The notes beneath the pieces were generated by a model. That model was not told the origin of the DNA and searched no databases. It saw only the letters and a program-made list of their open reading frames with translations. A program made the translations under genes and the position numbers. A stretch of 64,000 nucleotides of DNA. Origin: Candidatus Latescibacterota bacterium (GTDB lineage Bacteria; Latescibacterota; UBA2968; UBA8231). Shown here piece after piece: positions 26,264 to 42,032 of the stretch. Location of the stretch: the NCBI GenBank assembly GCA_965203355.1, contig OZ241889.1, positions 2,080,001 through 2,144,000 of the forward strand, read 5' to 3'. The stretch's first letter is position 1. Each line of letters opens with the position of its first letter.

Positions 26264-26302
26264 CGGGGAGCTTGGTTGCGGGCGGCATGGGAATTAATTG
26301 AC

Positions 26303-29300
26303 ATGGCAGAATGCGAACACATCCTAGACAATCGCCAGCGGCGCGTCGTCGATTATTTGCGGCAGCACCTGTCCGCCGCCGAGATGTTTCGCCTCGTTTC
26401 GGCGTATTTCACCATTTACGGCTACGAGGCCCTGCAACGCTCATTGAGCGGCGTTGCGGATGTGCGCTTTCTCTTTGGGGATCCAGCCTCGGTCGGCGCG
26501 TTGGACCCCGGCGAGAGAGCACTAAAAGCCTTCGACCTGACCGAAGACGGGCTCGCGCCTCAACGCGCCTTGCAACAGAAATACCTCGCCCGACAATGCG
26601 AAGCATGGGTCCGCCGCCAAGGCGTCAAAATTCGCTCCATTGGCCAATCCAACTTCTTGCACGGCAAGATGTATCTCACTGAATCCGCTCACGGCGGCAC
26701 AGCGGTGGTTGGTAGCTCTAACTTCACGCGCGGTGGCTTGGGCTGCGGGACGAGTGCCAACGTGGAAATCAACTTGGCAACCCAAGACGCAGCTATTTGT
26801 AGCGAATTGCAGCAGTGGTTTGACGAGTTGTGGGCGGACAAGACGCTGACCAAGGATGTCAAAAAGGACGTGCTGGACGCGCTGGCGCGGCTCGGCCGGG
26901 AGTACGCGCCGGAGTTGATCTACTACAAAACGCTCTACGACTTGTTCCAAGCGGACATCGAAGCGAGGAAGGCCGGCGAAAGCCAGCTAAAAGATACGCA
27001 CCTATACGATACGGCCATTTGGAACGCGCTGTACGAATTCCAAAAAGACGGAGCTAAAAGTGCCATTGCCCGCCTGCTGCGACACAACGGTTGTATTTTG
27101 GCCGACGCTGTTGGTTTGGGAAAGACCTATACGGCCCTGGCGGTGATCAAGTTCTTTGAATTGCGCAATGAGCGAGTGCTGGTGTTATGCCCCAAAAAGC
27201 TGCGCGAAAACTGGGCGTTGTATCCTGTGCACAACGCCCAAACTGGCAATCCCTTCCTCGAAGACCGCTTTGGTTACACCTTGCTATCGCACACCGACTT
27301 GTCGCGCCGCTGGGGGCAAGCCGGTGCTATTGATCTGGCGCATTTCAACTGGCGCAATTTCGACTTGGTGGTCATTGACGAATCGCACAATTTCCGCAAT
27401 GACTCCAAGTCCCGCTCCGAAGAAGGCGGTGCGATTCGCCACAGTCGCTACTCGCGGTTGTTGGAAGAAGTTATCCAAGCCGGGACCCAAACCAAGGTGC
27501 TGATGCTTTCGGCGACACCGGTCAATACTTCGCTTATAGACCTTCGCAACCAGATTTATCTGATGACCGAAAAGCGCGAGGATGTGTTGCGAGAGAGCCT
27601 GGGCATTGACCACATCGGTACGCTGTTAAGGCAGGCGCAAAAGGAATTTAAGGCCTGGGAGACCACAGCCGAGAAAAGCGGCAAAAAAGACAAGACAACG
27701 TTACTGGAGAGATTGGGTGCTGATTTTTTTAGGCTGTTGGGCGGCGTTTCCATTGCGCGCTCGCGGCAACAGATCAAGCATTTCTACGCCGCAGAAATGG
27801 AGAGAATCGGCCAATTCCCCACGCGGCAACAGCCACAGAATCACTATCCGCTGACGGATCTGGAGGACGAACTTTCATACAAAAATTTATCCGCACAAAT
27901 CGAGCGGTTCGCTTTGTCCATCTACCGGCCGTCGAGCTACGTTACCAGTGCAGAGGCCAAGAAACGGTTGGCAGACGAGAAGAAGCAACTGCGGTTTAAT
28001 CAGGCCGATCGCGAGCGTTTCCTCATTGGCATGATACGAGTCAATTTTCTGAAACGTTTGGAGAGTTCGGCCCACTCGCTGATGGAAACGCTCGGACGCA
28101 CTATCGGCAAAATTGAAGCCTTGTTACAAAAGATAGATCGCTATGAGCAAAATCGGCTGCTGGACGAACGAGCGGACACCCTGCCAGACGACGATGACGA
28201 CGACGACGAATTTCTGATCAATCGGGCGCGCACTCCTTACCATCTGCGCGAGTTGGATTTGCCCCATTGGCAAGAGGACTTGCTAAAGGATAAGGAGACC
28301 TTGGAGGCGGTCTATGAACGGGTCCGCGTTATCACACCGGAGCGGGATGGCAAGCTGCGCAAGATCAAGGCGCACATTCGAGACAGAGCACAACATCCGA
28401 CGGTCGACCGGGATGGCCGGATCAACCGCAAGCTGTTGATATTTTCCACCTTCAAGGACACGGTCGAGTACCTGTACGAAAACTTGGCGACCTTGGCGCG
28501 CGAGTTGGGGTTGAACATGGCGATGGTCTCCGGGGATGTAACGCGCGTTGCTTCCGGCCCTAACAACTTTAACGCTATTCTGACCAACTTCGCGCCGCGG
28601 GCCCACGGACAGGCCAATAGCATGGACGAGATTGACCTGCTGATTGCTACGGATTGTATCTCAGAGGGGCAGAACCTGCAAGATTGCGATACCGTACTCA
28701 ACTACGACATCCACTGGAATCCAGTGCGCATCATCCAGCGCTTCGGCCGCATTGATCGCATCGGCAGCCGCAACCAGTCGGTGCGGATGATTAACTATTG
28801 GCCGACCAAGGACATGGAGGTCTATTTGCGCCTGCAAAGCCGCGTACAAGCGCGCATGGCCTTGGCGGACGCCACCGCCAGCGGCGCCGACGACCCATTG
28901 AACGAAGATCCGTCTGAGCCGCTTCAGATGGAGCTGAACTTCCGCGACGAGCAACTAAAGAAAATGCGCGAAGAGGTGCTGGACTTAGACGAGCTATCCG
29001 AAGGCGTTGTTATGAGCGACTTTACGCTCGATTACTTTTTTGCCCAATTGCTGCGGTATTTGGAGCAAAACAAGGCCGAACTGGAAGCCATGCCCTACGG
29101 GGCCTACGCCTTAGCCGATGGGGCGAGCGACGTCGCACAGCCGGGCGTGATATTTTTTCTGCGTCAGCGCAACGCCAGCACTGACACAAGAGAGCAAAGG
29201 GCCAGTCCAGTTCATCCGTACTATGCGGTATATGTCCGCGATGATGGCCATATCCGCTACGGTTGTAGCCATGCCCGGCAGGTGCTGGAATTGTTTGAAT

Positions 29301-29560
29301 CGGTAGCCCTCGGCAAGACCGAGCCGCTGCAAAGGTTATGTGATCAGTTCGACCGCGAAACCCAAAATGGCCAAGACATGGTTCGTTACGATAAATTGTT
29401 GAACGCCGTGATAGCTCATATCGGTGGGGCGGACAAAGCCGCGCAGATACGGCAACTGGGCATTCGCGGTCAGCGCAGTTTCAGGCTACCTGGGCAATCT
29501 GCCCCGCCGAGTAATGCGGATTTTGCGCTGACAACTTGGCTGATTATTGCAAAGGCATGA
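26303..29560 (+). CDS. PLD-nuclease/SF2 (SNF2-like) helicase associated with Type IIG R-M
   Basis: HGKMY..GSSNFT PLD motif, LADAVGLGKT, DESH, SATP, EGQNLQ, QRFGRIDRIG. Confidence 0.88.
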   Translation: MAECEHILDNRQRRVVDYLRQHLSAAEMFRLVSAYFTIYGYEALQRSLSGVADVRFLFGDPASVGALDPGERALKAFDLTEDGLAPQRALQQKYLARQCEAWVRRQGVKIRSIGQSNFLHGKMYLTESAHGGTAVVGSSNFTRGGLGCGTSANVEINLATQDAAICSELQQWFDELWADKTLTKDVKKDVLDALARLGREYAPELIYYKTLYDLFQADIEARKAGESQLKDTHLYDTAIWNALYEFQKDGAKSAIARLLRHNGCILADAVGLGKTYTALAVIKFFELRNERVLVLCPKKLRENWALYPVHNAQTGNPFLEDRFGYTLLSHTDLSRRWGQAGAIDLAHFNWRNFDLVVIDESHNFRNDSKSRSEEGGAIRHSRYSRLLEEVIQAGTQTKVLMLSATPVNTSLIDLRNQIYLMTEKREDVLRESLGIDHIGTLLRQAQKEFKAWETTAEKSGKKDKTTLLERLGADFFRLLGGVSIARSRQQIKHFYAAEMERIGQFPTRQQPQNHYPLTDLEDELSYKNLSAQIERFALSIYRPSSYVTSAEAKKRLADEKKQLRFNQADRERFLIGMIRVNFLKRLESSAHSLMETLGRTIGKIEALLQKIDRYEQNRLLDERADTLPDDDDDDDEFLINRARTPYHLRELDLPHWQEDLLKDKETLEAVYERVRVITPERDGKLRKIKAHIRDRAQHPTVDRDGRINRKLLIFSTFKDTVEYLYENLATLARELGLNMAMVSGDVTRVASGPNNFNAILTNFAPRAHGQANSMDEIDLLIATDCISEGQNLQDCDTVLNYDIHWNPVRIIQRFGRIDRIGSRNQSVRMINYWPTKDMEVYLRLQSRVQARMALADATASGADDPLNEDPSEPLQMELNFRDEQLKKMREEVLDLDELSEGVVMSDFTLDYFFAQLLRYLEQNKAELEAMPYGAYALADGASDVAQPGVIFFLRQRNASTDTREQRASPVHPYYAVYVRDDGHIRYGCSHARQVLELFESVALGKTEPLQRLCDQFDRETQNGQDMVRYDKLLNAVIAHIGGADKAAQIRQLGIRGQRSFRLPGQSAPPSNADFALTTWLIIAKA

Positions 29561-29594
29561 TAGAGGACGGATGCCATTCGCAAGGAAAAGATAT

Positions 29595-31283
29595 ATGAAT
29601 ATCAATGCCAGTATTATCGACCAGAGGGTATCGAGTATCCTTGAAGATCATTCCGAATGGCTGCCGGAAGGGAACGATATTAACAAAAAGAAGTCGGCGG
29701 CATTTGTGCTCCTGTGCATGTCAACGTGCCTTGAAATAACGCTTGCAGACAGTGCCGAATTGCTTACCGAGGGAGGGAACGATGCCGGCGTTGATGGACT
29801 TCACGTTGGCGAGGTTGAAGACGGTGATTTTCTCGTCGCGATTTTCCAAGGCAAGTACAAAGTCAAGGATCTGAGCGGAAAAGCAAATTTCCCGGAGAAC
29901 GATGTGCAAAAAGCTATAGGTACTGTACGGGTGCTGTTCGATCCCAATAGGAACGTCGCGCTAAACGAAAAAATAGCCCCTAAGATTGAAGAGATTCGCT
30001 CGTTGATACGCGATGCATATATTCCCAATGTTCGGGTGATCCTTTGCAATAACGGAGATCGGTGGACACCGCAAGCAGATAATTGGATAACTGGTGCAGA
30101 AGAGGATTACGGCGACAAAGTAAAATTTCTCCACTTCAACCACGATTCCATAGTCCGCATCTTGCAGCGCAGCAAACAGGTAGATACCATCCTGACACTG
30201 AGAGGGCAAGCTATCGTGGAAGATATGAACTATATGCGCGTTTTGGTCGGGCGCGTTTCCGTTCAGGAGATCCAACGACTGTTTAACGAACACGGAGACA
30301 GCCTACTCGAGCGCAATATCCGCCGCTACCTTGGCCTGCACACCAATCGCGTCAACACCGCAATTCACGAAACGCTTTGTGCGCCAAACAAATCTGACAA
30401 GTTTTATTTCTACAACAATGGCATTACCGCAGTCTGCGATCGATTTGATTACAACGCTTTTCAACAATCAGACTACCAGGTGCAACTCAAGAATATGCAG
30501 GTGATTAATGGGGGACAGACCTGTAAGACGATTCAAGAAACACTAAATGAAAGTTTGCCCAATATATTCGGCAAATCGGCTTATCTGTTGATTCGCATTT
30601 ACCAGTTGGCCGATACCCATAAAGAGTTTGTCCAAGACATCACTTATGCTACTAACAGTCAGAATCCAGTGGATCTCAGGGATTTGCGGTCTAACGATGA
30701 GATGCAGAAGCAGTTGGAGTTGGGCATGTCTGAGCTGGGCTATACGTATAAACGCAAGCGGGAGGAAGGTGGCAGTGATTCATCGATCATCACTAGTTCA
30801 ACTGCGGCAGAGGCCGTATTGGCAATCTGGCGAGAAAGGCCGCACCAAGCCAAATTTCGCCGCAAAGAGCATTTTGGAAAACTGTACGAGGATATTTTTA
30901 AGCCGCTCAACGCGGCTCAGGCACTACTCGCAGTCTTGATTTTCAGGGTTGTGGAGAACGAAAGAAAACGTCCGACAGCGGCAACGTCACCGGACTTTCT
31001 GCCCTATTCGTCCCACTACATCGCCATGTTGATCGGTCGCAAGTTGCTAAAATATAATGAACTCACCCTCGACCGAATTTCCCATCGAAACATTCAGGGA
31101 CTCTTACAGGTACTTAAGGAAAAGCAAGACCACTATTATGCGGATGCCATCCGATCGCTGGAAAATGCGTTAAAGGCTTGCTACGGCGATAGGGCTGTTT
31201 CACTCCAACAGTTGTCGGCGACTTTCAGGCGCGGCGACTTATTGGAGATGCTTGACGACCTCGATAAAATGGAGAAGGCATGA
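29595..31283 (+). CDS. AIPR family (abortive infection phage resistance) protein
   Basis: GGNDAGVDG, LLERNIRRYLG, FYFYNNGIT, QVINGGQT, TNSQNPV. Confidence 0.9.
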   Translation: MNINASIIDQRVSSILEDHSEWLPEGNDINKKKSAAFVLLCMSTCLEITLADSAELLTEGGNDAGVDGLHVGEVEDGDFLVAIFQGKYKVKDLSGKANFPENDVQKAIGTVRVLFDPNRNVALNEKIAPKIEEIRSLIRDAYIPNVRVILCNNGDRWTPQADNWITGAEEDYGDKVKFLHFNHDSIVRILQRSKQVDTILTLRGQAIVEDMNYMRVLVGRVSVQEIQRLFNEHGDSLLERNIRRYLGLHTNRVNTAIHETLCAPNKSDKFYFYNNGITAVCDRFDYNAFQQSDYQVQLKNMQVINGGQTCKTIQETLNESLPNIFGKSAYLLIRIYQLADTHKEFVQDITYATNSQNPVDLRDLRSNDEMQKQLELGMSELGYTYKRKREEGGSDSSIITSSTAAEAVLAIWRERPHQAKFRRKEHFGKLYEDIFKPLNAAQALLAVLIFRVVENERKRPTAATSPDFLPYSSHYIAMLIGRKLLKYNELTLDRISHRNIQGLLQVLKEKQDHYYADAIRSLENALKACYGDRAVSLQQLSATFRRGDLLEMLDDLDKMEKA

Positions 31284-31702
31284 AAGAGGACATACAAGCT
31301 TCCTTGATGAGGATGCCAAGCAACGACTTTAAGGCAGCAGCGCAAGATTTGTTAGCGGTCCTCGGCTATCGCAGCGCGCGTACGCTGGGCGGGCAGACGG
31401 GCGATGTGGCCGATTTCATCGCGCAGTTTCCCGCCCCAAAACCAAATACCAAGACTGAACTGGCATTCCGTGAGCACGTCCAATCGGTGCGGCTCGTCTT
31501 TCAGGTGACAAGCGACGAAATCACCGCTGTCCCCAAAATCCCGGCTGAAGAGTCCATAGATGAAATCGCCGCTGCGCTTGAAGTTCCGGTCAAAGTTATC
31601 CTAGAGACTATTTGCAGCGACCGCACGGTTAAACGCCGTGATTGCTCGTATCACTGGGCAGACAAAGCCACGCAGATACGGCCACTAGACATTCGCGGTT
31701 AG
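31280..31702 (+). pseudogene. Internally deleted relic of a second Type IIG R-M gene
   Basis: 31339..31529 matches 34107..34297 (about 5 mismatches in 191 bp), followed by VPKIP..EIAA, which resembles an MTase C-terminus. Confidence 0.8.
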
Positions 31703-31749
31703 GCTGTTGGTCAAACCCGCAAAACCGAGTAATGCGGCTTTTGCGCTGA
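31632..31749 (+). pseudogene. Decayed copy of the helicase 3' end
   Basis: Aligns to 29402..29531 (AACGCCGTGAT, GACAAAGCC.CGCAGATACGG, CATTCGCGGT, CCGAGTAATGCGG.TTTTGCGCTGA) with indels. Confidence 0.75.
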
Positions 31750-31775
31750 TCCAGCGCGCGAGCGGAGCAATCGCA

Positions 31776-32993
31776 ATGCCAGATTTTACAGAAGAAGAAC
31801 TGCTGCAAATCATCGCAGCCGGCGAAGCAGACCGCGTCGAATTCAAAGAGTCTTTGGCTGGCAACGCTGCTACTAGCATCAGGGAAGCGATCTGCGCTTT
31901 TGCCAATGATTTGGCTGGGCGCGAAAGCCCCGGCTTAGTCTTCATTGGTGTGAAGGACGATGGAACGATAGGCAACATAGCGGTCACCGATCCGTTGCTC
32001 CAGCAGTTGGCCGATATGAAAACCGACGGCAATATCGTACCGCCGCCCTCGTTGACAGTGGAGAAGCACCGACTGCAAGGCAGGGAAGTTGCGGTTATCA
32101 CCGTGCAACCTTCGAACTCGCCGCCCGTGCGCTTCAAGGGAGCCATCCACATTCGCATTGGCCCGCGCCGTGGCATTGCCTCCGCTCAGGACGAGAGGAT
32201 TCTCAATGAGAAGCGGCGATACGGAGACCGCCCTTTCGACCTACAGCCGATTCCGACCGCGAGCTTGTCCGATCTCGATCTGACCCAGTTTGAAAACGAA
32301 TACTTAACCGCCGCGTTTTCGGATGAAGTACTAGCGGCCAATGACCGCAGCTTATACGAGCAACTCGCGGCGACAAAAATGATCGTCGCCGCCGACCAGC
32401 CCACCGCAACTGTACTGGGCTTACTCGCAATCGGCAAGAACCCGCAGGATTTCTTGCATGGTGCCTATGTACAATTCCTCAGAATTGATGGCAACGAATA
32501 CACAGACAAAATAATCGATGCCCAAAAGATAGGCGGTTCCATCCCGCAACTCCTGCGCCAGCTCGAAGAAAAACTGACGGCCCACAATCGCATCGCGGTA
32601 GATATTACAACGAGCTACATTGAACAACGAACAGAACTGTATCCCGTGGCTGCCTTGCACCAGATTATCCGCAATGCCGTGATGCACAGGACGTACGAGG
32701 CAACTAACGCGCCCGTTCATGTCTATTGGTTCAACGACCGCCTTGAGGTGTTGAGCCCCGGTGGCGCATTTGGGGCGGTGACAGCCGAGCGGTTTGGGGA
32801 ACCGGGATTGGTTGATTATCGCAATCCAAATGTTGCAGACGCGATGAGAACTCTCGGATTTGTTCAGCGTTATGGTGTTGGAATACCCATCGCTAAAAAC
32901 CAGTTGGCGGCATCGGGACATCCAGAACTTGAGTTTGATGTTTCCAACACTTTTGTGCGGGTAACAGTAAAGTCGAGGAGAGGCAAACAATGA
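31776..32993 (+). CDS. Schlafen/AlbA_2 domain + HATPase_c_4-like protein
   Basis: EADRVEFKES, AICAFAND, FIGVKDDG; NAVMHRTY, SPGG, YRNP, GVGI. Confidence 0.82.
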   Translation: MPDFTEEELLQIIAAGEADRVEFKESLAGNAATSIREAICAFANDLAGRESPGLVFIGVKDDGTIGNIAVTDPLLQQLADMKTDGNIVPPPSLTVEKHRLQGREVAVITVQPSNSPPVRFKGAIHIRIGPRRGIASAQDERILNEKRRYGDRPFDLQPIPTASLSDLDLTQFENEYLTAAFSDEVLAANDRSLYEQLAATKMIVAADQPTATVLGLLAIGKNPQDFLHGAYVQFLRIDGNEYTDKIIDAQKIGGSIPQLLRQLEEKLTAHNRIAVDITTSYIEQRTELYPVAALHQIIRNAVMHRTYEATNAPVHVYWFNDRLEVLSPGGAFGAVTAERFGEPGLVDYRNPNVADAMRTLGFVQRYGVGIPIAKNQLAASGHPELEFDVSNTFVRVTVKSRRGKQ

Positions 32994-34000
32994 CCGTTCC
33001 AGTGTTGACATTCTTCAACAACAAGAGCGGCGTGGGCAAAACCTCGCTTGTCTATCATCTGGCGTGGATGCTGTCTGACATGGGGTATCGGGTGTTGGCT
33101 TGCGATCTCGATCCGCAGGCGAACCTCACAGCGGCATTGCTGGATGAAGATCCGTTGGAAAAGCTGTGGGATGAAGATAACGAGGTCGCCGCCCATACCA
33201 TCCTACAATGCGTCTGGCCGCTGACAAAAGAGGGCGATATCAAAGCCCCGGTGCTAACGAAAATTACATCTGCGTTGTGCCTGATTCCGGGCGACTTGGC
33301 ACTGGCCAGATTTGAAGATACGCTGTCATCAGCATGGCCTAACGCATTGGATTCTGGCGGGCTGTATCGTCCCTTCCGCATGCTGACGGCCTTCTCGACC
33401 GTCATGCAGTCCGGGGCTGCACAGATGGACGCCGCGGTCGTCTTGGTTGACGTCGGTCCCAGTTTAGGGGCCGTCAATCGCTCCGCGCTGATTGCTACCG
33501 ATTACATCGTCGTCCCACTGGGCACCAACTTGTTTTCGCTCCAGAGCCTGTGCCATCTCGGTCCGACGCTGAATCAGTGGCGGCAGGGCTGGCAGCGGCG
33601 GAGGGCCCACTGGACGCCACCGGATTTTCCGCTGCCAAATGGGGCTATGCAGCCCGTTGGCTATGTAGTGCAACAGCACGGCGTCCGGCTGAGTCGTCCC
33701 ATCAGGGCTTATGACAAATGGGTCAACCAAATGCCGGCAGAATACGCCCGCAGCCTGTGCGGGGACGCCGAAGGACCGTACCCCGCAACGCCAGCGCAAG
33801 ACGAACAAAACAACCTCGCCACCGTCAAACAATACCAGAGCTTAGTGACAATGGCGGAGGAAGCACGCAAGCCCATTTTTCACCTCACCACCGCCGATGG
33901 TGCCATGGGTAGCCATGCGGCCGCGGCAAACGACGCACGTCGGGATTTTCGGGATTTGGCGCAGAAGATCGTCCAGCGAATCAATATTGGGCACACGTAA
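32990..34000 (+). CDS. ParA/Soj-family ATPase
   Basis: FFNNKSGVGKT deviant Walker A, DLDPQANLT, DVGPSLGAVN. Confidence 0.88.
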   Translation: MTVPVLTFFNNKSGVGKTSLVYHLAWMLSDMGYRVLACDLDPQANLTAALLDEDPLEKLWDEDNEVAAHTILQCVWPLTKEGDIKAPVLTKITSALCLIPGDLALARFEDTLSSAWPNALDSGGLYRPFRMLTAFSTVMQSGAAQMDAAVVLVDVGPSLGAVNRSALIATDYIVVPLGTNLFSLQSLCHLGPTLNQWRQGWQRRRAHWTPPDFPLPNGAMQPVGYVVQQHGVRLSRPIRAYDKWVNQMPAEYARSLCGDAEGPYPATPAQDEQNNLATVKQYQSLVTMAEEARKPIFHLTTADGAMGSHAAAANDARRDFRDLAQKIVQRINIGHT

Positions 34001-34038
34001 ACTGTGTCCCCAAGGATTAACACAAGGAAAGCGACAAT

Positions 34039-37000
34039 ATGGACCGTATAAAAGAGGCGATACGCGCCACCCTTGCGAAAATTCCGCTGGGCGATTTTGC
34101 CGCGATAGCGCAAGATTTGTTAGCGGTCCTCGGCTATCGCAGCGCGCGTACGCTGGGCGGGCAGACGGGCGATGTGGCCGATTTCATCGCGCAGTTTCCC
34201 ATCCCGAAACCAAATACCAAGACTGAACTGGCATTCCGTGAGCAGGTCCAATCGGTGCGGCTCGTCTTTCAGGTGACAAGCGACGAAATTACCGCTGGGT
34301 TTGAAGCCCATTCCTTCGACAAAGGACAACAGCAGAGCTTCCTCTTTTTCGCCGTTGAACTCAAGGAAGCAACCTATCCTCGCGGCGAGTACGCGCAGTT
34401 CACCCGCGAAATCAACAAGCGCCTGAGTCAACCCTGCGTCGTTTTGTTCAGCACGGCCAATCATCGGCTCTCGCTGTCCTTTGTCCATCGCCGCGAGCAC
34501 AAGCGCGATCAACAGCGCGATGTGCTGGGTCGCGTGTCGCTGATACGGGAGGTGGACCCGACCCATCCCCACCGCGCCCATTTGGACATTTTGGCCGCCC
34601 TATCGCTGGCCAAGTGCGCGGATTGGCTAGGCCGCCATAACAAGCCGCACAATTTTGACGGGCTACTGGCCGCTTGGCTGGACAAACTGGACACCGAGGA
34701 ACTCAATCGTCAGTTCTATGACGAGCTGTTCGCTTGGTTCAAGAAAGCAGTCGCGGAAGCGAAGTTCCCGGCGACCGCATCGGCCGAGCAGCAGGTCATT
34801 CGGCTGATCACTCGCATCCTGTTCGTCTGGTTCATCAAGGAAAAGGACTTAGTCCGCGAGGAGTGGTTCGCACCCGCCGAAATGGAAAAGCTGCTGTGCA
34901 ACTTTGGCGGGTCCGACTACTACCGCGCTGTCTTGCAGAATCTTTTCTTCGCAACGCTCAACACCGAGATAGACGCGCGTGGTTTCAGCACCCAGACCGA
35001 GCCTAGCCACCGGGTTTTTTCGCGTTTCCGCTACCAATCGCTCATCCGCGATACAGCGCGATTCGAAGAGCTGATGCAGCAGACGCCATTCATCAACGGC
35101 GGCTTGTTCGACTGTTTGGACGACGAGGAATCGACAAGCGCCGGGGGCAGACGCATGGATATGTTCAGCGATCCCGATCCAAATGACGGTCCGCGCGCTG
35201 CCCAAGCGCGCCGCGAGGCGTGGCGAGAACTGAACGTTCCTGATGCCCTGTTCTTCGACCAGAGCGATGGGCTGTTTCCCCTGCTCAACCGCTACAAGTT
35301 CACGGTGGAGGAAAACACGCCCGTAGAGCAGGAAGTCGCTCTGGACCCGGAATTGCTCGGCAAGGTCTTTGAGAACTTACTGGCGGCCTACAACCCGGAA
35401 ACGCGCGAGACAGCGCGCAAGCAGACTGGCTCTTACTACACGCCGCGCGTCGTGGTGGATTACATGGTGGAGGAAGCCTTAGTCGCCGTGTTGACGGAAA
35501 AAGTGCCGCCCGACGATGGCGAAGTGGCGTATTGGCAAGAGCGATTGCGCTATTTGCTGGATTACGAAGACGCATTCGCCGACGCCAATGATCTTTTTGA
35601 AGAGGCCGAAGCCGAGGGCGTTGTGCGAGCGATTGCCGAGATCAAGGTGTTGGATCCGGCGGTCGGCTCTGGGGCGTTTCCAATGGGCATATTGCACAAG
35701 CTGACCTTGGCGTTGCAGCGGCTTGATCCTGACAATCAGCGTTGGCAAGCACTGCAAAAGAAACGGGCCAGACAACGGGCGGACGCGACGTTTGAAACTC
35801 ACGATCGGCAGAAACGCGATGCCGAGTTGCTGGAGATTAGTAAAACGTTCGAGCGGTATTCGGGCGATTTCGGGCGCAAGCTCTACTTGGTTCAAAACAG
35901 CATCTTTGGCGTAGATATTCAGCCGGTGGCCTGCCAAATCGCCAAGTTGCGCTTTTTCATTTCGCTGGCGATTGAGCAAGAAGCCGGGCGAGAAAGTGCC
36001 GACAACTTTGGCATCAAGCCGCTGCCCAATCTGGAGACGCGCTTTGTGGCGGCGAATACGCTGTTGAGCCTTGACAAGCCAGGCCAACTTAGTCTCGAAA
36101 GGGATGTGGTGAACCAGCTAAAACGGAAATTGAATGAAAACCGCGAGCAGCATTTTCACGCTACTACGCGCCAACAAAAATTGGACTGTCGGGAGAAGGA
36201 TGCGGAACTACGCGCAGCCTTGGCGGTGGAGTTGAAAGGAGTCGTCTTTTCGCCCGATACGGCGGAAAAAATTGCACGCTGGAATCCCTACGATCAGAAC
36301 GCTGTTGCCGATTGGTTTGACGCTGAGTACATGTTCGGCGAGCGTGGGGGATTTGATGTGGTGATTGGGAATCCGCCGTACATTCAGTTGCAGAAAAATG
36401 GCGGTGAATTAGGTAATCTCTACAAGAATGCCGGCTACGAAACTTTCGCCCGCACCGGCGATATATACCAACTTTTCTACGAGCGCGGTTGCCGGTTGTT
36501 CAGGCAGGATCAGGGCCTATTGGTCTATATCACCTCTAATAGCTGGCTCAAGGCCGAATACGGCAAAGCTCTGCGGCGCTATCTATCTGAGCGGCACACG
36601 CCGCTACGCCTGCTGGAAATGGGCAAGGATGTTTTTGAGAACGCCATTGTTGATACCAACGTCTTGATCGCACGTGGGGGCCACCATAAGACAACTGGCA
36701 AGGCTATAGATATGGATCGTTTGTCCGATAAATCTTTCCCGCCTGCCGAGTCTCTTTGGGGCGAACTGCGCCCGCAAGGTGAAAAGCCGTGGAGTGCGCT
36801 GTCGGCCATTGAACAGTCGATTATGGACAAGATGGAAGCTGTTGGAACGCCGCTGAAAGAGTGGGATATTGCGATTAACTACGGAATTAAGACCGGCTAT
36901 AATGCTGCCTTTATCATTGATGAAAAGACTAAAGAATCGCTGATCGCCGAAGATCCGCGCTCGGCCGACATTATCAAGCCCGTGCTGCGAGGGCGGGACA

Positions 37001-37623
37001 TAAAACGTTACCGAGCAGAGTGGGCGGGGTTGTGGATGATTGACGCGCATAACGGATACGATAGTATTCCTGCTGTTGATATTGACGAATACCCAGCCAT
37101 CAAAAATCATTTGGACAAGTTTTATCCCCAACTGAAAAAGCGACAAGATAAAGGCAGGACACCGTACAATCTCCGTAATTGCGCTTACTACGAAGTATTT
37201 GAAAAAGAAAAGCTATTTTGGATGCACATGGCACCGAGAGGTAGATTCGCATATTCCGACTCGGAGACTATTTTCTGTAACCAAAAGGCATTTGTTGTGA
37301 TCGGACATTCTCTCAAGTACCTCTGTGCGGTCTTGAATAGTCGTCTCATAACTTGGCAGGTCAAGAATATCGCAGTAACGACCGGTATGGGACTTACTCA
37401 ATGGGATAAATTCGTGGTAGAACGCCTACCCATTCCCCAAATATCCACCACAGATCAGCAGACCTTCATCTCCCTAGTTGACGAAATCCTGAAGGCCAAA
37501 ACCGTCAACCCAAAAGCCAATACCAGTGATCAGGAAGCAGAAATTGATCGGCTAGTCTATACCCTTTACGGCCTGACCGAAAAAGAAATCGCTGCAATAG
37601 TACTAGCGGAAAATTGTGAGTGA
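34039..37623 (+). CDS. Type IIG (Eco57I-like) restriction-modification enzyme, N6-adenine MTase with TaqI-like C-terminal TRD
   Basis: PFINGGLF, TGSYYTP, motif I LDPAVGSGAF, motif IV GNPPY, C-terminal AEIDRLVYTLYGLT. Confidence 0.92.
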   Translation: MDRIKEAIRATLAKIPLGDFAAIAQDLLAVLGYRSARTLGGQTGDVADFIAQFPIPKPNTKTELAFREQVQSVRLVFQVTSDEITAGFEAHSFDKGQQQSFLFFAVELKEATYPRGEYAQFTREINKRLSQPCVVLFSTANHRLSLSFVHRREHKRDQQRDVLGRVSLIREVDPTHPHRAHLDILAALSLAKCADWLGRHNKPHNFDGLLAAWLDKLDTEELNRQFYDELFAWFKKAVAEAKFPATASAEQQVIRLITRILFVWFIKEKDLVREEWFAPAEMEKLLCNFGGSDYYRAVLQNLFFATLNTEIDARGFSTQTEPSHRVFSRFRYQSLIRDTARFEELMQQTPFINGGLFDCLDDEESTSAGGRRMDMFSDPDPNDGPRAAQARREAWRELNVPDALFFDQSDGLFPLLNRYKFTVEENTPVEQEVALDPELLGKVFENLLAAYNPETRETARKQTGSYYTPRVVVDYMVEEALVAVLTEKVPPDDGEVAYWQERLRYLLDYEDAFADANDLFEEAEAEGVVRAIAEIKVLDPAVGSGAFPMGILHKLTLALQRLDPDNQRWQALQKKRARQRADATFETHDRQKRDAELLEISKTFERYSGDFGRKLYLVQNSIFGVDIQPVACQIAKLRFFISLAIEQEAGRESADNFGIKPLPNLETRFVAANTLLSLDKPGQLSLERDVVNQLKRKLNENREQHFHATTRQQKLDCREKDAELRAALAVELKGVVFSPDTAEKIARWNPYDQNAVADWFDAEYMFGERGGFDVVIGNPPYIQLQKNGGELGNLYKNAGYETFARTGDIYQLFYERGCRLFRQDQGLLVYITSNSWLKAEYGKALRRYLSERHTPLRLLEMGKDVFENAIVDTNVLIARGGHHKTTGKAIDMDRLSDKSFPPAESLWGELRPQGEKPWSALSAIEQSIMDKMEAVGTPLKEWDIAINYGIKTGYNAAFIIDEKTKESLIAEDPRSADIIKPVLRGRDIKRYRAEWAGLWMIDAHNGYDSIPAVDIDEYPAIKNHLDKFYPQLKKRQDKGRTPYNLRNCAYYEVFEKEKLFWMHMAPRGRFAYSDSETIFCNQKAFVVIGHSLKYLCAVLNSRLITWQVKNIAVTTGMGLTQWDKFVVERLPIPQISTTDQQTFISLVDEILKAKTVNPKANTSDQEAEIDRLVYTLYGLTEKEIAAIVLAENCE

Positions 37624-38420
37624 ATCAGGATCTAACTGACTGCGAGGCAACTCTTTATGCGTCACCTTGCTAGCTGGAAGGTCTAAGGTAAAGGCCGTTC
37701 TTCCACTGCGGAAATCTCCATCGCCGTCAGCCCATACAATTCGTAAACCTGTAGATCAATCTCGGCTTCAGTGTCGGATATATCGGCGTTCAAATCAGTC
37801 TCTTTAGCCGTCAAGATGTGGTCAACTAAGCGGATAAATGGACGCTGCACAGCAGCGGGGATTTCAGGGATGGGTATGGTTGTAACGGAAGCATTGATCC
37901 ATCGCGTCACACCCATTCCAGAATTCAGAGCCGTTTTGCTCATAAACCAAGTTATCAGCTTTGAGTTGAGCAAAGCGCATAGATACTTGATCGATTGACC
38001 AGACATCACAAATCCTGTGTTCAAACAGAACATTCCATCTACATCGTAGGCAAATCTTCCTTGCTCTGTGAGGTCCATCCAAATCAACTTTTCTTTGGCA
38101 AAGTTCTCGTGAGTACCCGAACTGTAATAATCTACTTGTAGTTGCCACCATTCGTAAGGCACCTTTCCCGTCCTAGGGTTAGCTCCACCCCTTCGTTTCA
38201 AAAGTTGCTTCTTGTATGGCAGTAGATGCCTATGTACCGCGGGATATTCATTTTCGGCAATTTTAGAATGACTATAAATTAGCCATAGCCCCGCCCACTC
38301 TGCTCGGTAACGTTTTATGTCTCGCCCTCGCAGCACGGGCTTGATAATGTCGGCCGAGCGCGGCTCTTCGGCGATCAGCGATTCTTTAGTCTTTTCATCA
38401 ATGATAAAGGCAGCGTTATA
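36898..38420. repeat. 132-bp inverted repeats (36898..37029 and 38289..38420) flanking an invertible 1259-bp two-TRD segment
   Basis: 129/132 identical by manual alignment. Both encode YNAAFIIDEKTKESLIAE(D/E)PRSADIIKPVLRGRDIKRYRAEWAG. Confidence 0.92.
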
Positions 38421-38432
38421 TCCAGTGAGCAC
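37683..38432 (-). CDS. Silent alternative C-terminal target-recognition domain (TaqI_C-like) of the Type IIG enzyme
   Basis: Intact 249-aa frame sharing the repeat-encoded segment, then divergent (YEWWQLQ, FAKEKLIW, KYLCALLNS, EIDLQVYELYGLT). Contains no MTase motifs. Confidence 0.85.
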   Translation of the reverse strand: MLTGYNAAFIIDEKTKESLIAEEPRSADIIKPVLRGRDIKRYRAEWAGLWLIYSHSKIAENEYPAVHRHLLPYKKQLLKRRGGANPRTGKVPYEWWQLQVDYYSSGTHENFAKEKLIWMDLTEQGRFAYDVDGMFCLNTGFVMSGQSIKYLCALLNSKLITWFMSKTALNSGMGVTRWINASVTTIPIPEIPAAVQRPFIRLVDHILTAKETDLNADISDTEAEIDLQVYELYGLTAMEISAVEERPLP

Positions 38433-38442
38433 CCCTCGATAA

Positions 38443-38484
38443 ATCGCAAAATATCACATTGCTCAAATAGTCATATTTTGCAAT
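38443..38484. repeat. 12-bp imperfect inverted repeat between the silent TRD and the recombinase
   Basis: ATCGCAAAATAT-N18-ATATTTTGCAAT (11/12). Confidence 0.55.
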
Positions 38485-38520
38485 CGCCTAAGACACTAAA
38501 ACCCTAACAAGGAGCTACCG

Positions 38521-39489
38521 TTGAGTTCTTTAGCCATGATTGAACAAGATTTCCATACCGAAGTCCTTTCCTCCGTATTGGCGACCAATACTCGTATTGC
38601 CTATGAGAAAGGATGGTCTCGGTTTTGCGACTACTGCACAAAAGAGCATATAGACGACCCATTATTGGCTTCCCCGGAACTGGTGGCACGTTTTCTCGTG
38701 CATAGCGCGACAAGGCCAAGCGAGCAAAGCGGTACCGTGCTATCTATGGGTACCGTGACGCTTTATAAGAGTGCCATCAACAAGAAATATACCGACGCCG
38801 GAAAGTCCTCCCCGACCAATCACCCCGTGGTCCGTGCCAGCCTCAAAGGGTTGGCCCGGCTCAAAGGGACCGCACGTCGTCGAGTAGAGGCCCTGAGAGA
38901 ATACCATATTCAAGCCATGCTTTCCCAATGTGCTGATACGACCATCGGTCGGCGCGACGCCGCCATAATGGCCCTTGGTTTCGCCGGTGCGCTACGACGC
39001 TCAGAAATATGCGGCCTAACTGTAGAGGATTTTGACTTCTTGGACCCCAACGAGGAAGCCAATCAGCGCATGTTTCTTACCATCCGCCGCTCCAAAACGG
39101 ATCAAGAGGGGAAAGGACAAACGATCGCGATCTTGGACGGCCGGGTGATCCGGCCCGTTCATCGGCTGAAAGTGTGGCTTAATGCGTCGGGGATCACACA
39201 CGGCCCCTTGTTTCAGACGATGAAACGGGGCGGCCATGTGCAGGGTAAGCCGCTGCACCATTCCGATATTCCACGCCTAGTCAAGCACTATGCGGCACGG
39301 ATTGGACTGGACCCCAAAGAAGTAGCCGGGCATTCCCTGCGGGCCGGTTTTGTCACCAGTGCCGCCGTGCATCGCGCCCGACTCGACAAAATCATGGCCG
39401 TCACCCGCCATACGAATCCGGCCACAGTCATGCAATACATTCGCGACGCCGATTCATTTACCGACCATGCCGGTGAAAATTTTTTATAA
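38521..39489 (+). CDS. Tyrosine recombinase, Cre-like
   Basis: RDAAIMALGFAGALRRSE (R), SKTD (K), HSLR, TRH, MQY (Y). AAGGAG RBS precedes the TTG start. Confidence 0.92.
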   Translation: MSSLAMIEQDFHTEVLSSVLATNTRIAYEKGWSRFCDYCTKEHIDDPLLASPELVARFLVHSATRPSEQSGTVLSMGTVTLYKSAINKKYTDAGKSSPTNHPVVRASLKGLARLKGTARRRVEALREYHIQAMLSQCADTTIGRRDAAIMALGFAGALRRSEICGLTVEDFDFLDPNEEANQRMFLTIRRSKTDQEGKGQTIAILDGRVIRPVHRLKVWLNASGITHGPLFQTMKRGGHVQGKPLHHSDIPRLVKHYAARIGLDPKEVAGHSLRAGFVTSAAVHRARLDKIMAVTRHTNPATVMQYIRDADSFTDHAGENFL

Positions 39490-39559
39490 GTTTGTTTCGG
39501 GCACTTTCGCTACCTTTGGGGCGTTAGTCCAACGGCATTGTCCATGTTCACGGCGTAAA

Positions 39560-39925
39560 TCCCGGGAGTCCTACTACGAATGCCTCCGGCTTAGCTCACA
39601 GCACTGGCACGACGGCAAACACGAACTAACGCCTTGGTTTAACTTCCTCTTCGCGATAGTCCGCCGCGCTTACGTCGAGTTGGAGGAACGCGCCGATCAG
39701 ATCAAGGCTCCGCGGGGTACTAAGTCCGACCGGGTACTCGCCGCCATCCGCGCCCAACCGGGCGCATTCCGCCTGAGTGATATAGAGCGCGATTGTCCCG
39801 GGGTGGGCCGCGAGTGGATTCGCACCCTCTTTGCGGAACTAAAGAAATCCGGCGACCTGGTTTGTAGCGGTCGCGGCCCGGGTGCGCGCTGGCGTTTTCG
39901 CGGGAATAAGGGTAGTAATACTTGA
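39560..39925 (+). pseudogene. C-terminal remnant of a Fic-family protein
   Basis: SRESYYECL..SSQHWHDGKH..PW and a winged-helix-like tail ending GRGPGARW, which I recognise from Fic proteins. The catalytic HPFxxGNGR region is absent. Confidence 0.55.
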
Positions 39926-39950
39926 GTAAGGGGAGTAATAAGGGTAGTAA
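39907..39950 (+). repeat. Three copies of 12-mer TAAGGG(T/G)AGTAA
   Basis: 39907-39918, 39927-39938, 39939-39950. Confidence 0.7.
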
Positions 39951-40041
39951 CTGAAGTGGCGAGCAGCAATATCCGCGCTAAAATCTGCGCCGAGTTGTCT
40001 GTTTTTCCGTATATTATCATAGCAACAGGTAGAGGTTTAAT

Positions 40042-41436
40042 ATGAAAATAAGCGTGAAAAACCTAGGCGTTCTGAAACAGGCGGAATTTGAGCTGGGCGA
40101 GTTGACTCTTATTTGCGGCTGCAATAATACGGGCAAAACCTACGTGACGTATGCCTTGTTTGGCTTTTTATGGCACTGGGAGCGTTTGTTAGAAGCCAAG
40201 ATTCCCAATAGGACCATCGAGGCTTTACTAAAGAACGGTGTAACGCGGGTTGATATTGAGCCCTATGCCATGAAAGCAGACGACATCCTTAAACGAGGTT
40301 GCCTAGAATATACCCGGAATCTACCGAGAGTCTTTGCCTCGAAACAGAGCCGCTTCAAAGGTGCCAAATTCCAAGTGGCTCTTAAGCCAGCAAAGATGTC
40401 ATCGATAAAGAACCGTGATTTTGAACGTAAAGTACAATCTGCTGAAGACGATATTCTCTTGCTGTCCAAGGCTAAAGGAGAAAAGGACTTAGTGGTCTCA
40501 CTGCTGATGGAGAAGGGGAAAAGAGCATTGCCTTCTGAAATGATTGAGGCAGTAATCTCAAGAGGAATTATTGAATTACTCTTTGGCAAGTTTCTCCCTC
40601 AGCCTTTTATTGCCAGTGCAGAACGCACTGGAGCGGCAATTTTTCGTAAGGAATTAAATTTTGCCCGGAACCGTTTGTTGAAAGAAATGATTCGGTCGGA
40701 TAAGAACATCGACCCGATGGAATTATTGTTTAAGTCCTATCAAGACTATCCCTTGCCGGTCGAAGTAAATGTAGACTTTATCCGGAAACTTGAAGATATT
40801 GCTAAAGAAGATAGTTTTCTTGTCGAAAAGCATCCACAAGTCCTGGATGACTTCGCTGCTATCGTCGGCGGAGAATACGTCGCTGGAAGTAATGACACGA
40901 TTTACTTCAAGCCCACACAAAAACAACTAAAACTGACAATGGACGAAAGTTCCAGCGCGGTACGTTCCTTGCTGGACATTGGCTTTTATTTACAGCACGT
41001 CGCAAAACCTGGCGATCTGCTGATGGTAGATGAGCCTGAATTAAACTTGCACCCGGAAAACCAGCGTCGCATGGCTCGGCTCTTCGTGCAGTTGGTTAAT
41101 CTGGGTATCCGCGTCTTCGTGACCACACACAGCGATTATATTGTTAAAGAACTAAATACCTTGATCATGCTTAATCAGGGCAAGCCCTATCTGAAGAAAA
41201 TCGCCGAACAAGAAGGTTACCAAGCCGAAGAGCTTGTAGCCGCTGAAAAGATCCGGGTCTATATCGCAGAAGAAGCATTGATGGAACAAAGGGAAGAGAG
41301 TAGGAGAAGTCAGTATCAAACACTTGTTTCGGCCAATATAGACCCAGAGCTGGGGATTGAAGTACGCAGTTTCGACCAGACGATCAATAAAATGAATGAG
41401 ATTCAGGAAGCCATTGTGTGGGGCGGAGATGAATGA
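40042..41436 (+). CDS. ABC-type (AAA_15/AAA_21) ATPase, putative defence
   Basis: GCNNTGKT, AERTG, SSSAVRS signature, MVDEPELNLHP, TTHS. Confidence 0.85.
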   Translation: MKISVKNLGVLKQAEFELGELTLICGCNNTGKTYVTYALFGFLWHWERLLEAKIPNRTIEALLKNGVTRVDIEPYAMKADDILKRGCLEYTRNLPRVFASKQSRFKGAKFQVALKPAKMSSIKNRDFERKVQSAEDDILLLSKAKGEKDLVVSLLMEKGKRALPSEMIEAVISRGIIELLFGKFLPQPFIASAERTGAAIFRKELNFARNRLLKEMIRSDKNIDPMELLFKSYQDYPLPVEVNVDFIRKLEDIAKEDSFLVEKHPQVLDDFAAIVGGEYVAGSNDTIYFKPTQKQLKLTMDESSSAVRSLLDIGFYLQHVAKPGDLLMVDEPELNLHPENQRRMARLFVQLVNLGIRVFVTTHSDYIVKELNTLIMLNQGKPYLKKIAEQEGYQAEELVAAEKIRVYIAEEALMEQREESRRSQYQTLVSANIDPELGIEVRSFDQTINKMNEIQEAIVWGGDE

Positions 41437-42032
41437 TGTCGGACTTTGACATATTACGGGATTTGATCCGGGATGAGGCATTGGCCTCGGTTGAGGATGA
41501 ATACGGCAAGGAGACTATTGTCCTGGAGGAACCTGGCAATCAACAACAATCAGCATATTCTCTGAAGATACGCAACGTGCCGGACGACTTTATCGCGTTC
41601 AAAATAGATGCTTTTCCGGCTCCAAGAAAAATCTTTAAAAACGATAAAGGAGAATGTAAACGGGCTGATTTTGTTATTATTGCCAGTGATGATAAGATAA
41701 ACTGGATTATTCACATTGAAATGAAAGGTGGCAACACAGGTTCGGGAAAAGAGATCAAGCAACAATTACGCGGGGCACGATGTCTCGTTGCCTACTGCCG
41801 CGCCATTGGTCGAGAATTCTGGCAAGAACCGAATTTCCTCAAAGAAAAAAATTACCAACAGCGTTTTATTAGTATTAAAAATATTCGGATACCAAAACGG
41901 CCAACACGGCCAGATTCAAAATCCGGTCAACACGACATGCCGGAAAACATGCTGAGAATCGACGGGTTGGCTAAAGGGAAATTACAATTTAACGAACTGG
42001 TCGGAAAAGCCTTAAAGAGACAAGGCCCATGA
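41433..42032 (+). CDS. Putative PD-(D/E)XK nuclease-fold protein, partner of the ATPase
   Basis: KRADFVII..HIEMK..IKQQL pattern. Translationally coupled to the ATPase. Confidence 0.55.
   Translation: MMSDFDILRDLIRDEALASVEDEYGKETIVLEEPGNQQQSAYSLKIRNVPDDFIAFKIDAFPAPRKIFKNDKGECKRADFVIIASDDKINWIIHIEMKGGNTGSGKEIKQQLRGARCLVAYCRAIGREFWQEPNFLKEKNYQQRFISIKNIRIPKRPTRPDSKSGQHDMPENMLRIDGLAKGKLQFNELVGKALKRQGP

Follow-up and report, generated by a model that had tools for sequence, protein, structure and literature searches.

A stretch of 64,000 nucleotides (nt) of DNA from a Candidatus Latescibacterota bacterium (assembly GCA_965203355.1, contig OZ241889.1, positions 2,080,001 to 2,144,000 of the forward strand; hereafter called the window) carries, between positions 34,039 and 39,489, a gene for a large DNA methyltransferase (MTase), a silent second version of its target recognition domain (TRD) in reverse orientation and a gene for a tyrosine recombinase. 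Based on comparative sequence evidence, we consider it likely that this locus is a working or recently working specificity switch, namely a gene-altering programmed inversion (TRD shufflon) acting on the MTase/specificity subunit of a restriction-like defense system with two genes, for a PLD-SNF2 helicase-nuclease and an Eco57I/TaqI_C MTase. The inversion would very probably switch the specificity of both methylation and restriction. We favor this interpretation because reverse cassette and recombinase occur together, because cassettes have swapped positions in orthologous islands and because silent cassettes are under purifying selection. The same three observations support an earlier note on this DNA, which had proposed an invertible specificity switch with a tyrosine recombinase.

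In the mechanism that we propose, the adjacent tyrosine recombinase would recombine the two 132-nt arms of an inverted repeat (IR1), located in the first 44, conserved codons of the TRDs, and would thereby flip 1259 base pairs (bp). The TRD that had been silent would then continue the reading frame of the constant 997 amino acids (aa) of the protein, which comprise the N-terminal domain, a spacer and the MTase core. Cells would alternate between enzymes of 1194 and 1198 aa with different DNA motifs, and with them its methylome and the targets of the helicase-nuclease would change. Further repeats nested within the TRD, a second and in some cases a third, would permit relatives to shuffle half-domains and to form four or more variants. 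We infer that it is the recombinase which catalyzes the inversion, and that inversion would take place at appreciable frequency in the source strain.

Inverted repeats and the proposed invertible segment

The left arm of IR1 (36898..37029, + strand) is part of the MTase gene; its codons specify residues 954-997, with which the TRD begins and which are conserved. The right arm (38289..38420, − strand) is complementary to it at 129 of 132 positions; script comparison placed the mismatches at left-arm positions 36903, 36954 and 36996. A repeat search extended the match to 150 nt at 94% complementarity (36892-37041 and 38277-38426). The arms enclose the invertible segment of 1259 bp (37030..38288), in which the variable parts of the expressed and the silent TRD are arranged tail to tail, separated by the stop codon and a spacer of 59 nt. 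Its GC content is 44.6%, compared to 52% in the island and 60-61% in the flanks. After in silico inversion of 37030-38288 the frame stays open and encodes 1198 aa instead of 1194 aa; the two forms have a prefix of 999 aa in common, made up of the 997 aa to the repeat end and two residues which are identical by coincidence. The silent alternative TRD cassette (37683..38420, −) starts at the IR1 block, contains no MTase domain, is open to its stop codon and matches TaqI_C with an E-value of 6.6e-17. It is contained in a reverse open reading frame (ORF) at 37683-38432 (−). Thus, the 132-nt inverted repeats with 129 identical positions around 1259 bp, as described in the earlier note, were reproduced exactly, and its further claims of an in-frame swap from 1194 to 1198 aa and of an intact, oppositely oriented alternative TRD held in both cases.

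For comparison, one genome per prokaryote species was scanned, which gave 491 stretches encoding relatives of the MTase. The best 80 of these loci (numbered with the letter L) were kept and searched by tblastn with the TRDs and the recombinase of the window. One further locus, L081, was the sole one returned by a scan of metagenome contigs with the recombinase as query. Overall, the expressed and the silent TRD of the window have an identity of 54%; over the repeat they hardly differ, and their C-parts are 45% identical. As judged from its length, its good preservation within otherwise 54%-identical coding sequence and the recurrence of the layout in 18 of the 80 relatives, IR1 is not a product of chance.

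The boundary between the N-part and the C-part of the TRD is formed by an inner repeat, IR2 (left arm 37198..37253, +; partner 38047-38102). In the window this repeat of 56 nt is degenerate, with 71% complementarity, and the silent N-part is of an atypical third type without the conserved IR2 block. Between the arms of six relatives (L015, L025, L029, L059, L062 and L071) the IR2 block is 93-100% identical. Due to the decay of the inner repeat to 71% and the atypical silent N-part, the window probably holds a switch with two states only.

The neighboring tyrosine recombinase

A tyrosine site-specific recombinase, presumably the invertase, is encoded at 38521..39489 (+), with 322 aa when read from a TTG codon and 317 aa from the ATG at 38536 that is used in the public record; it matches Phage_integrase with an E-value of 4.9e-16. 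All catalytic residues are present (R159, K192, H271, R274, H297 and Y306, numbered from the TTG), and the ORF begins 100 nt beyond the right arm of IR1. The earlier note had claimed a complete set of catalytic residues and a distance of about 100 bp, and it was right in both; its label “Cre-like” did not stand, as among solved structures in the PDB XerD scores better (E 6.4e-6) than Cre (E 0.0065), with a XerC-like protein in between (E 0.0018). The best NCBIfam match is archaeal XerA with 56.9 bits against a cut-off of 220. At least 120 relatives were found, all of those listed being at least 67% identical (one is the window's own record); a few of them bear names, either “site-specific integrase” or “integrase”. 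Identity to the nearest relatives is 88-90%. By these sequence comparisons the recombinase belongs to a distinct, large and highly conserved clade of tyrosine recombinases.

Occurrence of the module among relatives

A reverse-strand TRD directly follows the MTase gene in 18 of the 80 loci. Directly beyond it, a homolog of the recombinase (48-89% identical) is encoded in 17 of these 18 loci, with side and strand as found in the window; the remaining locus, L024, is cut by a contig edge and is not evaluable in this respect. Thus, all 17 evaluable loci that have a reverse cassette also have a recombinase match, and none of the 62 loci that lack the cassette has one (Fisher p 1e-17).

This distribution bears on the question of whether the recombinase is the agent of inversion at all. 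Inversion could take place by general, RecA-type homologous recombination over the 132-nt repeat, for which near-identity over such a length suffices, and the recombinase could serve another role, e.g. integration of the island; inversions that persist after deletion of a nearby recombinase are noted in passages of PMC9881135. However, a recombinase that is invariably found with the reverse cassette, always on the same side and strand, and never without it, is difficult to reconcile with such a role. In addition, islands at the same chromosomal site in L001, L004, L018 and L052 lack the module, so that the recombinase is not needed for the island. The module is also kept in loci whose repeats are merely 76-82% identical, and synonymous codons in both repeats are specific to recombinase-bearing loci (see below). 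We therefore consider RecA-type inversion improbable and retain the recombinase as the presumed catalyst of the switch.

By record label, the 18 module loci span seven phyla. Nearly all relatives are metagenome-assembled genomes (MAGs) of Latescibacterota, Poribacteria, Chloroflexota, Gemmatimonadota, Binatia, Entotheonella and similar groups; many of the host MAGs bear lineage names of the sponge-symbiont type, and several paralogs per genome are common. Outer repeats of 73-184 nt with 76-100% identity were found in 15 of the 18 module loci of the genome scan, among them a repeat of 173 nt at 100% in L062. In L003 and L022 the outer repeat is merely 24-27 nt long, and none was found in L024 and L075. 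Six module loci have inner repeats of 36-49 nt at 93-100%, and L015 has a third repeat pair near the tail (54 nt at 80%). Protein alignment and a per-codon comparison of the arms divide the TRD into five blocks, namely IR1 block, N-part, IR2 block, variable C-part and tail. The N-part exists in two main types, and in nearly all loci both of these are represented among the two cassettes.

The MTase family is strongly expanded in some genomes: five of the 80 best matches (L039, L044, L054, L058 and L078) are located on one Poribacteria chromosome, and three (L033, L040 and L067) on one Caldilineaceae chromosome. Relatives at 50-80% identity occur across many phyla by record label, which suggests heavy horizontal exchange of the family. 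We tentatively go one step further, with somewhat less than even confidence, and speculate that reverse cassette and invertase form a portable diversification module which has spread horizontally over at least seven phyla onto PLD-SNF2/methylase systems. With short invertase sites in the coding sequence at two or three nested positions of the TRD, marked by module-specific synonymous codons, such a module could shuffle half-domains and yield four to eight specificities per locus. Given several paralogous systems per genome, sponge microbiomes would be a large and unexplored reservoir of phase-variable methylomes and of TRD parts that recombine naturally.

Cassette movement and selection

Orthologous islands are present in the window, in L015 and in L081. 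As far as flanking sequence was fetched, the genes in the flanks are 88-95% identical at the aa level, with MqnC, MqnD and UbiA on one side and an epimerase, IlvD and a flavoprotein on the other; the stretch of L081 covers just the epimerase and IlvD. Within these islands the parts of the cassettes have swapped positions. The N-part of the TRD that the window expresses matches the silent N-part of L015 at 83% identity and the expressed N-part of L081 at 88%, and an identity of 95% was found between the expressed N-part of L015 and the silent N-part of L081. The expressed C-part of the window resembles the expressed one of L015 (83%) and the silent one of L081 (86%), and the silent C-parts of the window and L015 are 80% identical. 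At the DNA level, positions 4931-5597 of L081 align in reverse to 37842-37176 of the window (83%) with both flanks forward, the breakpoint being at the inner repeat. Two further swaps were found: the silent cassette of L003 has 90% identity to the cassette that L022 expresses, and the cassettes expressed in L007 and L011 have 84-85% identity to the silent cassette of L015. When the two IR1 peptides of one locus are compared, they are 98% identical in the window and in L015 and 89% identical in L081, compared with 80-89% between loci. This higher identity within than between loci indicates that the arms of IR1 evolve in concert.

Silent cassettes are, as judged from substitution ratios, under purifying selection. 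The ratio of nonsynonymous to synonymous substitution rates (dN/dS) is 0.07 for the silent C-parts of the window and L015 (83 codons) and likewise 0.07 for the silent N-parts of L007 and L011 (57 codons); pairs that include an expressed copy have values of 0.09-0.44. In 12 of the 18 silent cassettes, the stretch from the upstream stop codon to the conserved block contains no in-frame start codon (ATG, GTG or TTG). From selection on sequences that lack a start codon we conclude that the silent cassettes must, on this evidence, be translated at least occasionally within the MTase.

Purifying selection would fit an expressed gene as well, and the reverse ORF could be an independent gene encoding a stand-alone TaqI_C protein, divergent from the recombinase; this protein would be a subunit of its own for specificity or regulation, and inversion would not be required. 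Automatic annotation does call such ORFs genes, as in the lactococcal plasmid pJM1F discussed below, and a divergent intergenic region of 88 nt lies upstream of the ORF. However, the lack of an in-frame start in two thirds of the cassettes argues against this explanation, and the sole in-frame start upstream of the silent cassette of the window, a GTG four codons before the block, leaves no spacing to a ribosome-binding site. A promoter and terminator scan of 33800-40100 gave nothing above shuffled expectation. Moreover, the start of the cassette coincides exactly with the start of homology to the TRD of the MTase, and an independent gene would leave the homogenized repeats and the linkage to the recombinase unexplained. 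We regard an independent gene as very improbable and continue to read the reverse ORF as the silent cassette of the switch.

Both repeats carry a codon signature, which was counted from an alignment of 55 non-module and 20 module loci. A threonine of IR1 is encoded by ACT in 31 of 35 arms of module loci and in 6 of 40 elsewhere (p 7e-11), and an alanine of IR2 by GCT in 34 of 36 compared to 20 of 38 (p 5e-5); as the loci are related, both p-values overstate independence. The contrast persists across hosts that differ in GC content. We propose these module-specific synonymous codons as markers of candidate recombinase sites in IR1 and IR2.

Search for a second orientation and points against the proposed switch

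Four of seven public sequencing runs (X3, X4, X6 and X7) were compared with 33000-41000 of the window in the form of Logan contigs with k=31. Such contigs break at any repeat longer than k, so that a repeat arm cannot be linked to a segment. The pieces indeed end at the repeats (35938-36933, 37000-38318, 38289-38414 and 38385 onward), and no joint with a change of strand was reported among them, which says nothing for or against inversion. A contig of 126 nt in X4 and X7, which combines the letter of the left arm at 36954 with that of the right arm at 36996, was considered as a recombinant “hybrid arm”, but is best explained as a chimera: two arms collapsed in a k=31 graph, with bubbles popped independently of each other, give just such a contig. 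By our own arithmetic the depth of collapsed arms should be 1.35 times that of the flank, i.e. about 58 in X4, where 57.2 was observed. In X6, a run labeled with a different organism, one contig is identical to 37623-39511 of the window (silent cassette, right arm and recombinase), with no cover at 37272-37538. This run may contain a strain with the same silent cassette and another expressed TRD, but holes between contigs prove nothing and the observation was not used.

Several points weigh against the proposed switch. The contigs of the four runs, broken at the repeat ends, gave no read-level evidence of two orientations in the source organism. Among longer public proteins, the best full-length match to the variable part of the silent TRD is 72% identical (738 matches at E ≤ 0.001, of which 120 were listed), and the MTase of the window is the sole member of its 90% cluster; the recombinase likewise stands in a cluster of one. 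The inner repeat of the window is at 71% and its silent N-part is atypical. The arms of IR1 differ at 3 of 132 positions, and therefore the last exchange between them was not very recent. A motif common to IR1 and IR2 was sought by eye, which gave nothing convincing, and no core or crossover site could be defined. The swaps between species could in principle reflect replacement of cassettes by horizontal transfer, and the codon statistics treat related loci as independent. Finally, the two TRDs presumably read different motifs, as judged from the 45% identity of their C-parts alone.

Part of these points would be expected of a frozen relic, i.e. a locus which once worked as a switch, or arrived as one, and in which no meaningful inversion takes place now in the source strain, cassette and recombinase being passive. 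The lack of a second orientation in the accessible contigs, public proteins and clusters, the decayed inner repeat with the atypical silent N-part, and the three mismatches between the arms are all in line with a relic. In contrast, a passive recombinase would not be expected to retain its six catalytic residues and an identity of 88-90% to its nearest relatives, nor would a passive cassette be expected to remain an intact ORF with a dN/dS of 0.07 in its C-part when compared with L015. Likewise, the 132-nt arms of IR1 have retained 98% identity, compared to 18-45% at the protein level in the TRD sequence adjoining them. Taken together, we consider a frozen relic unlikely and a working or recently working switch the better explanation.

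The methyltransferase and its PLD-SNF2 partner

The expressed methyltransferase-TRD protein (34039..37623, +; 1194 aa) consists, in this order, of a DUF4391-like N-terminal domain, an MmeI-like helical spacer, a gamma-class N6-adenine MTase of the Eco57I family, a TaqI_C TRD and a short helical tail. Pfam matches were obtained for Eco57I (E 8e-34, residues 620-866) and TaqI_C (E 8e-14, residues 980-1132), and weakly for DUF4391. The S-adenosylmethionine-binding motif is intact, NPPY is found at residue 778, and the closest solved MTases are BseCI, CamA and TaqI. The earlier note had described a single-chain Type IIG enzyme. This holds with respect to the MTase core and the TRD in the same polypeptide and to the strong PADLOC match to REase_MTase_IIG (E 3.6e-147), whereas no nuclease domain was found in the N-terminal 470 aa. 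A family search with the N-termini of 48 relatives likewise matched no nuclease family; MmeI_hel was matched in 15 of the 48 and DUF4391, weakly, in 7. An AlphaFold model of the N-terminal domain, built from an alignment of 48 sequences (pLDDT 78.5), gave no match at E ≤ 0.001 when compared with the PDB by Foldseek; a likeness to splicing endonucleases and Holliday-junction resolvases appeared in Foldseek rows at E ≥ 1 and was not counted. An E-x-K in the N-terminus of the window protein is not kept in the family consensus, and the papers listed by a literature search for DUF4391 were unrelated. From its domain content, the most fitting description of the protein is that of a methylase/specificity subunit which belongs, together with a helicase-nuclease, to a two-gene system similar to restriction-modification (R-M) systems.

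Two other assignments were considered and rejected. With the NCBIfam model for BREX-1 PglX the protein reaches 89.8 bits against a cut-off of 500, and the neighbors that were scanned include no BREX protein. A Class 1 DISARM system was dismissed on the basis of 137.5 bits for DrmD against a cut-off of 610 and 71.7 bits for DrmMI in PADLOC, with no DUF1998 protein among the ORFs that were scanned from 21531 to 45650.

The partner, which is the usual one in operons of this MTase family, is a PLD-nuclease/SNF2-helicase protein of 1094 aa (26276..29560, +) with the Pfam domains PLDc_2, SNF2-rel_dom and Helicase_C and a PADLOC match to “HKD+Snf2” (E 2e-109). The H-x-K...E and GSSN motifs of PLD proteins, Walker A and a DESH box are present. 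Its PLD domain is the probable nuclease, and the protein as a whole is the probable motor and restriction component. In 79 of the 80 relatives the position of a homolog could be evaluated: it is adjacent to the MTase gene (ending less than 400 nt upstream) in 44 and lies at a greater distance upstream in 14, whereas the flank that was fetched shows no homolog in the other 21. In the window, the gene lies 4.5 kb upstream of the MTase gene and three genes are inserted between the two.

These three genes of defense type, within 29547-34000, encode an AIPR/AbiU-like protein (578 aa), a Schlafen protein with AlbA_2 and HATPase_c_4 domains (428 aa) and a ParA-like ATPase (336 aa). The same types recur in or near the systems of relatives (AIPR in 6, Schlafen in 13 and ParA in 10 of 80 loci), and the helicase-MTase junction may be a hot spot for the insertion of cargo. 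An ORF of 140 aa at 31280-31702 is a remnant, the first 250 nt of which are an 87% copy of the 5' end of the MTase gene (34048-34297) and the last approximately 75 nt an 84-87% copy of the 3' end of the helicase gene (29398-29473). It looks like the scar of two tandem helicase-MTase systems that were fused by deletion. A fragment resembling the N-terminus of the MTase is also found in relatives such as L001, L003, L009, L022 and L051.

Defense island and significance

The recombinase gene is directly followed by a two-gene defense system of the PD-T4-4/PDC-M47 type (40042-42032), consisting of an AAA_15 ATPase (E 1e-217 to PDC-M47A) and a partner of 199 aa; the same pair lies downstream in L021, L051 and L053. 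The whole defense island (26276-42032) is found at the same site, between ubiA and the epimerase gene, in related genomes labeled Latescibacterota, with differing content. The island most similar to that of the window is L018 (4551-11956), with AIPR, Schlafen and ParA proteins at 92-93% identity, an MTase-like ORF of 1259 aa and then an ORF of 1170 aa. The 1259-aa ORF matched the variable part of neither TRD of the window, and neither a reverse cassette nor a recombinase was found at this locus.

If the switching takes place as proposed, a single uncultured symbiont lineage alternates the specificity of its restriction and methylation, which could serve as a hedge against phages in an extremely virus-rich habitat and possibly reprogram gene expression. 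In metagenomic binning by methylation motifs caution would then be required, as one genome may hold two or more sets of motifs. The family offers a natural catalog of exchangeable TRD half-domains with defined junctions for the engineering of methylase and nuclease specificity, as well as a compact, conserved tyrosine invertase with candidate sites of approximately 20 nt within coding sequence.

Comparison with known systems

Inversion-driven switching of specificity in enzymes of this kind is already in print, and the locus does not establish a new category. Type I hsdS shufflons are known from pneumococcal SpnD39III with CreX/PsrA, from Bacteroides fragilis and, reportedly, from the work of Huang et al. 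2020. They resemble the window in that silent and expressed cassettes lie between nested inverted repeats next to a tyrosine invertase; half-TRDs are recombined, which yields several methylation specificities. They differ in having a separate S subunit with two TRDs and HsdR as motor, whereas in the window the TRD is the C-terminus of the MTase and a PLD-SNF2 protein would be motor and nuclease.

The earlier note had stated that such inversions are much less described for helicase-associated Eco57I-like enzymes. This was an overstatement, as Milman, Yelin and Kishony (NAR 2023; PMC9881135) report 11 inversions in Type II R-M enzymes confirmed by long reads, among them one in a locus of this very kind. 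According to passages of that paper, Bacteroides ovatus (CP083813.1, 5322008-5329826) carries an inverting Type II R-M gene homologous to Cj0031 of C. jejuni, with a gene for a PLD and SNF helicase protein immediately upstream, and homologs of this locus with repeats are known in three phyla. Like the window, this class consists of two genes, for a PLD-SNF2 helicase and for a large MTase/TRD protein annotated as Eco57I, and has repeats that alter the coding sequence; in their case, coexisting variants were seen in long reads (PMC9881135). The likeness is one of gene layout and annotation terms, the Eco57I family being known from the annotation in the paper (PMC9881135). What sets the family of the window apart are its hosts, which are uncultured MAGs, its distinct clade of tyrosine recombinases and the nested repeats in its TRDs; the passages name no recombinase for the B. 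ovatus locus (PMC9881135).

Inversions in pglX of BREX type 1 systems are described in Lacticaseibacillus rhamnosus and Brevibacterium casei in the same passages (PMC9881135). As in the window, a variable region of a large adenine MTase of the Eco57I family is swapped by inversions linked to a recombinase; in L. rhamnosus, however, it is the middle part of pglX that is swapped, by two nested inversions, whereas in the window a single inversion would exchange the whole C-terminus (PMC9881135). No brx or pglZ genes were found among the window ORFs that were scanned.

A preprint by Ni et al. 2025 (PMC11741434) describes inverted repeats in MTase and specificity genes of gut bacteria which, with a neighboring invertase, give rise to 2-8 genotypes, verified by long reads and methylation motifs. 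These systems are from gut hosts, and neither a PLD-SNF2 partner nor the recombinase clade of the window is described in the passages of PMC11741434 that were available. On inversions in R-M systems of sponge symbionts, a literature search gave no paper that was relevant as judged from its title or the start of its abstract; Supplementary Table S4 of PMC9881135 may list related loci.

The same layout is also found in a cultured dairy strain. Plasmid pJM1F of Lactococcus cremoris JM1 (NZ_CP016750.2; L082, 1665-10158) encodes a helicase with PLDc_2, SNF2 and Helicase_C domains, an MTase and a reverse TaqI_C cassette. The MTase (Eco57I/TaqI_C) is 31% identical to that of the window over 81% of its length, the cassette is a reverse-strand TaqI_C ORF of 263 aa, and an inverted repeat of 321 nt at 71% is present, with a recombinase gene directly beyond. 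By its Pfam match (Resolvase) and its annotation (Mpi family), this enzyme is a serine invertase, whereas that of the window is a tyrosine recombinase, and therefore the same switch design has been built with both classes of recombinases. The plasmid would be a tractable model for the design. What the locus described here adds to the known systems is the host range of uncultured MAGs, a dedicated and conserved clade of tyrosine invertases, nested repeats that would shuffle half-domains of the TRD, and the evidence from selection and codon usage.

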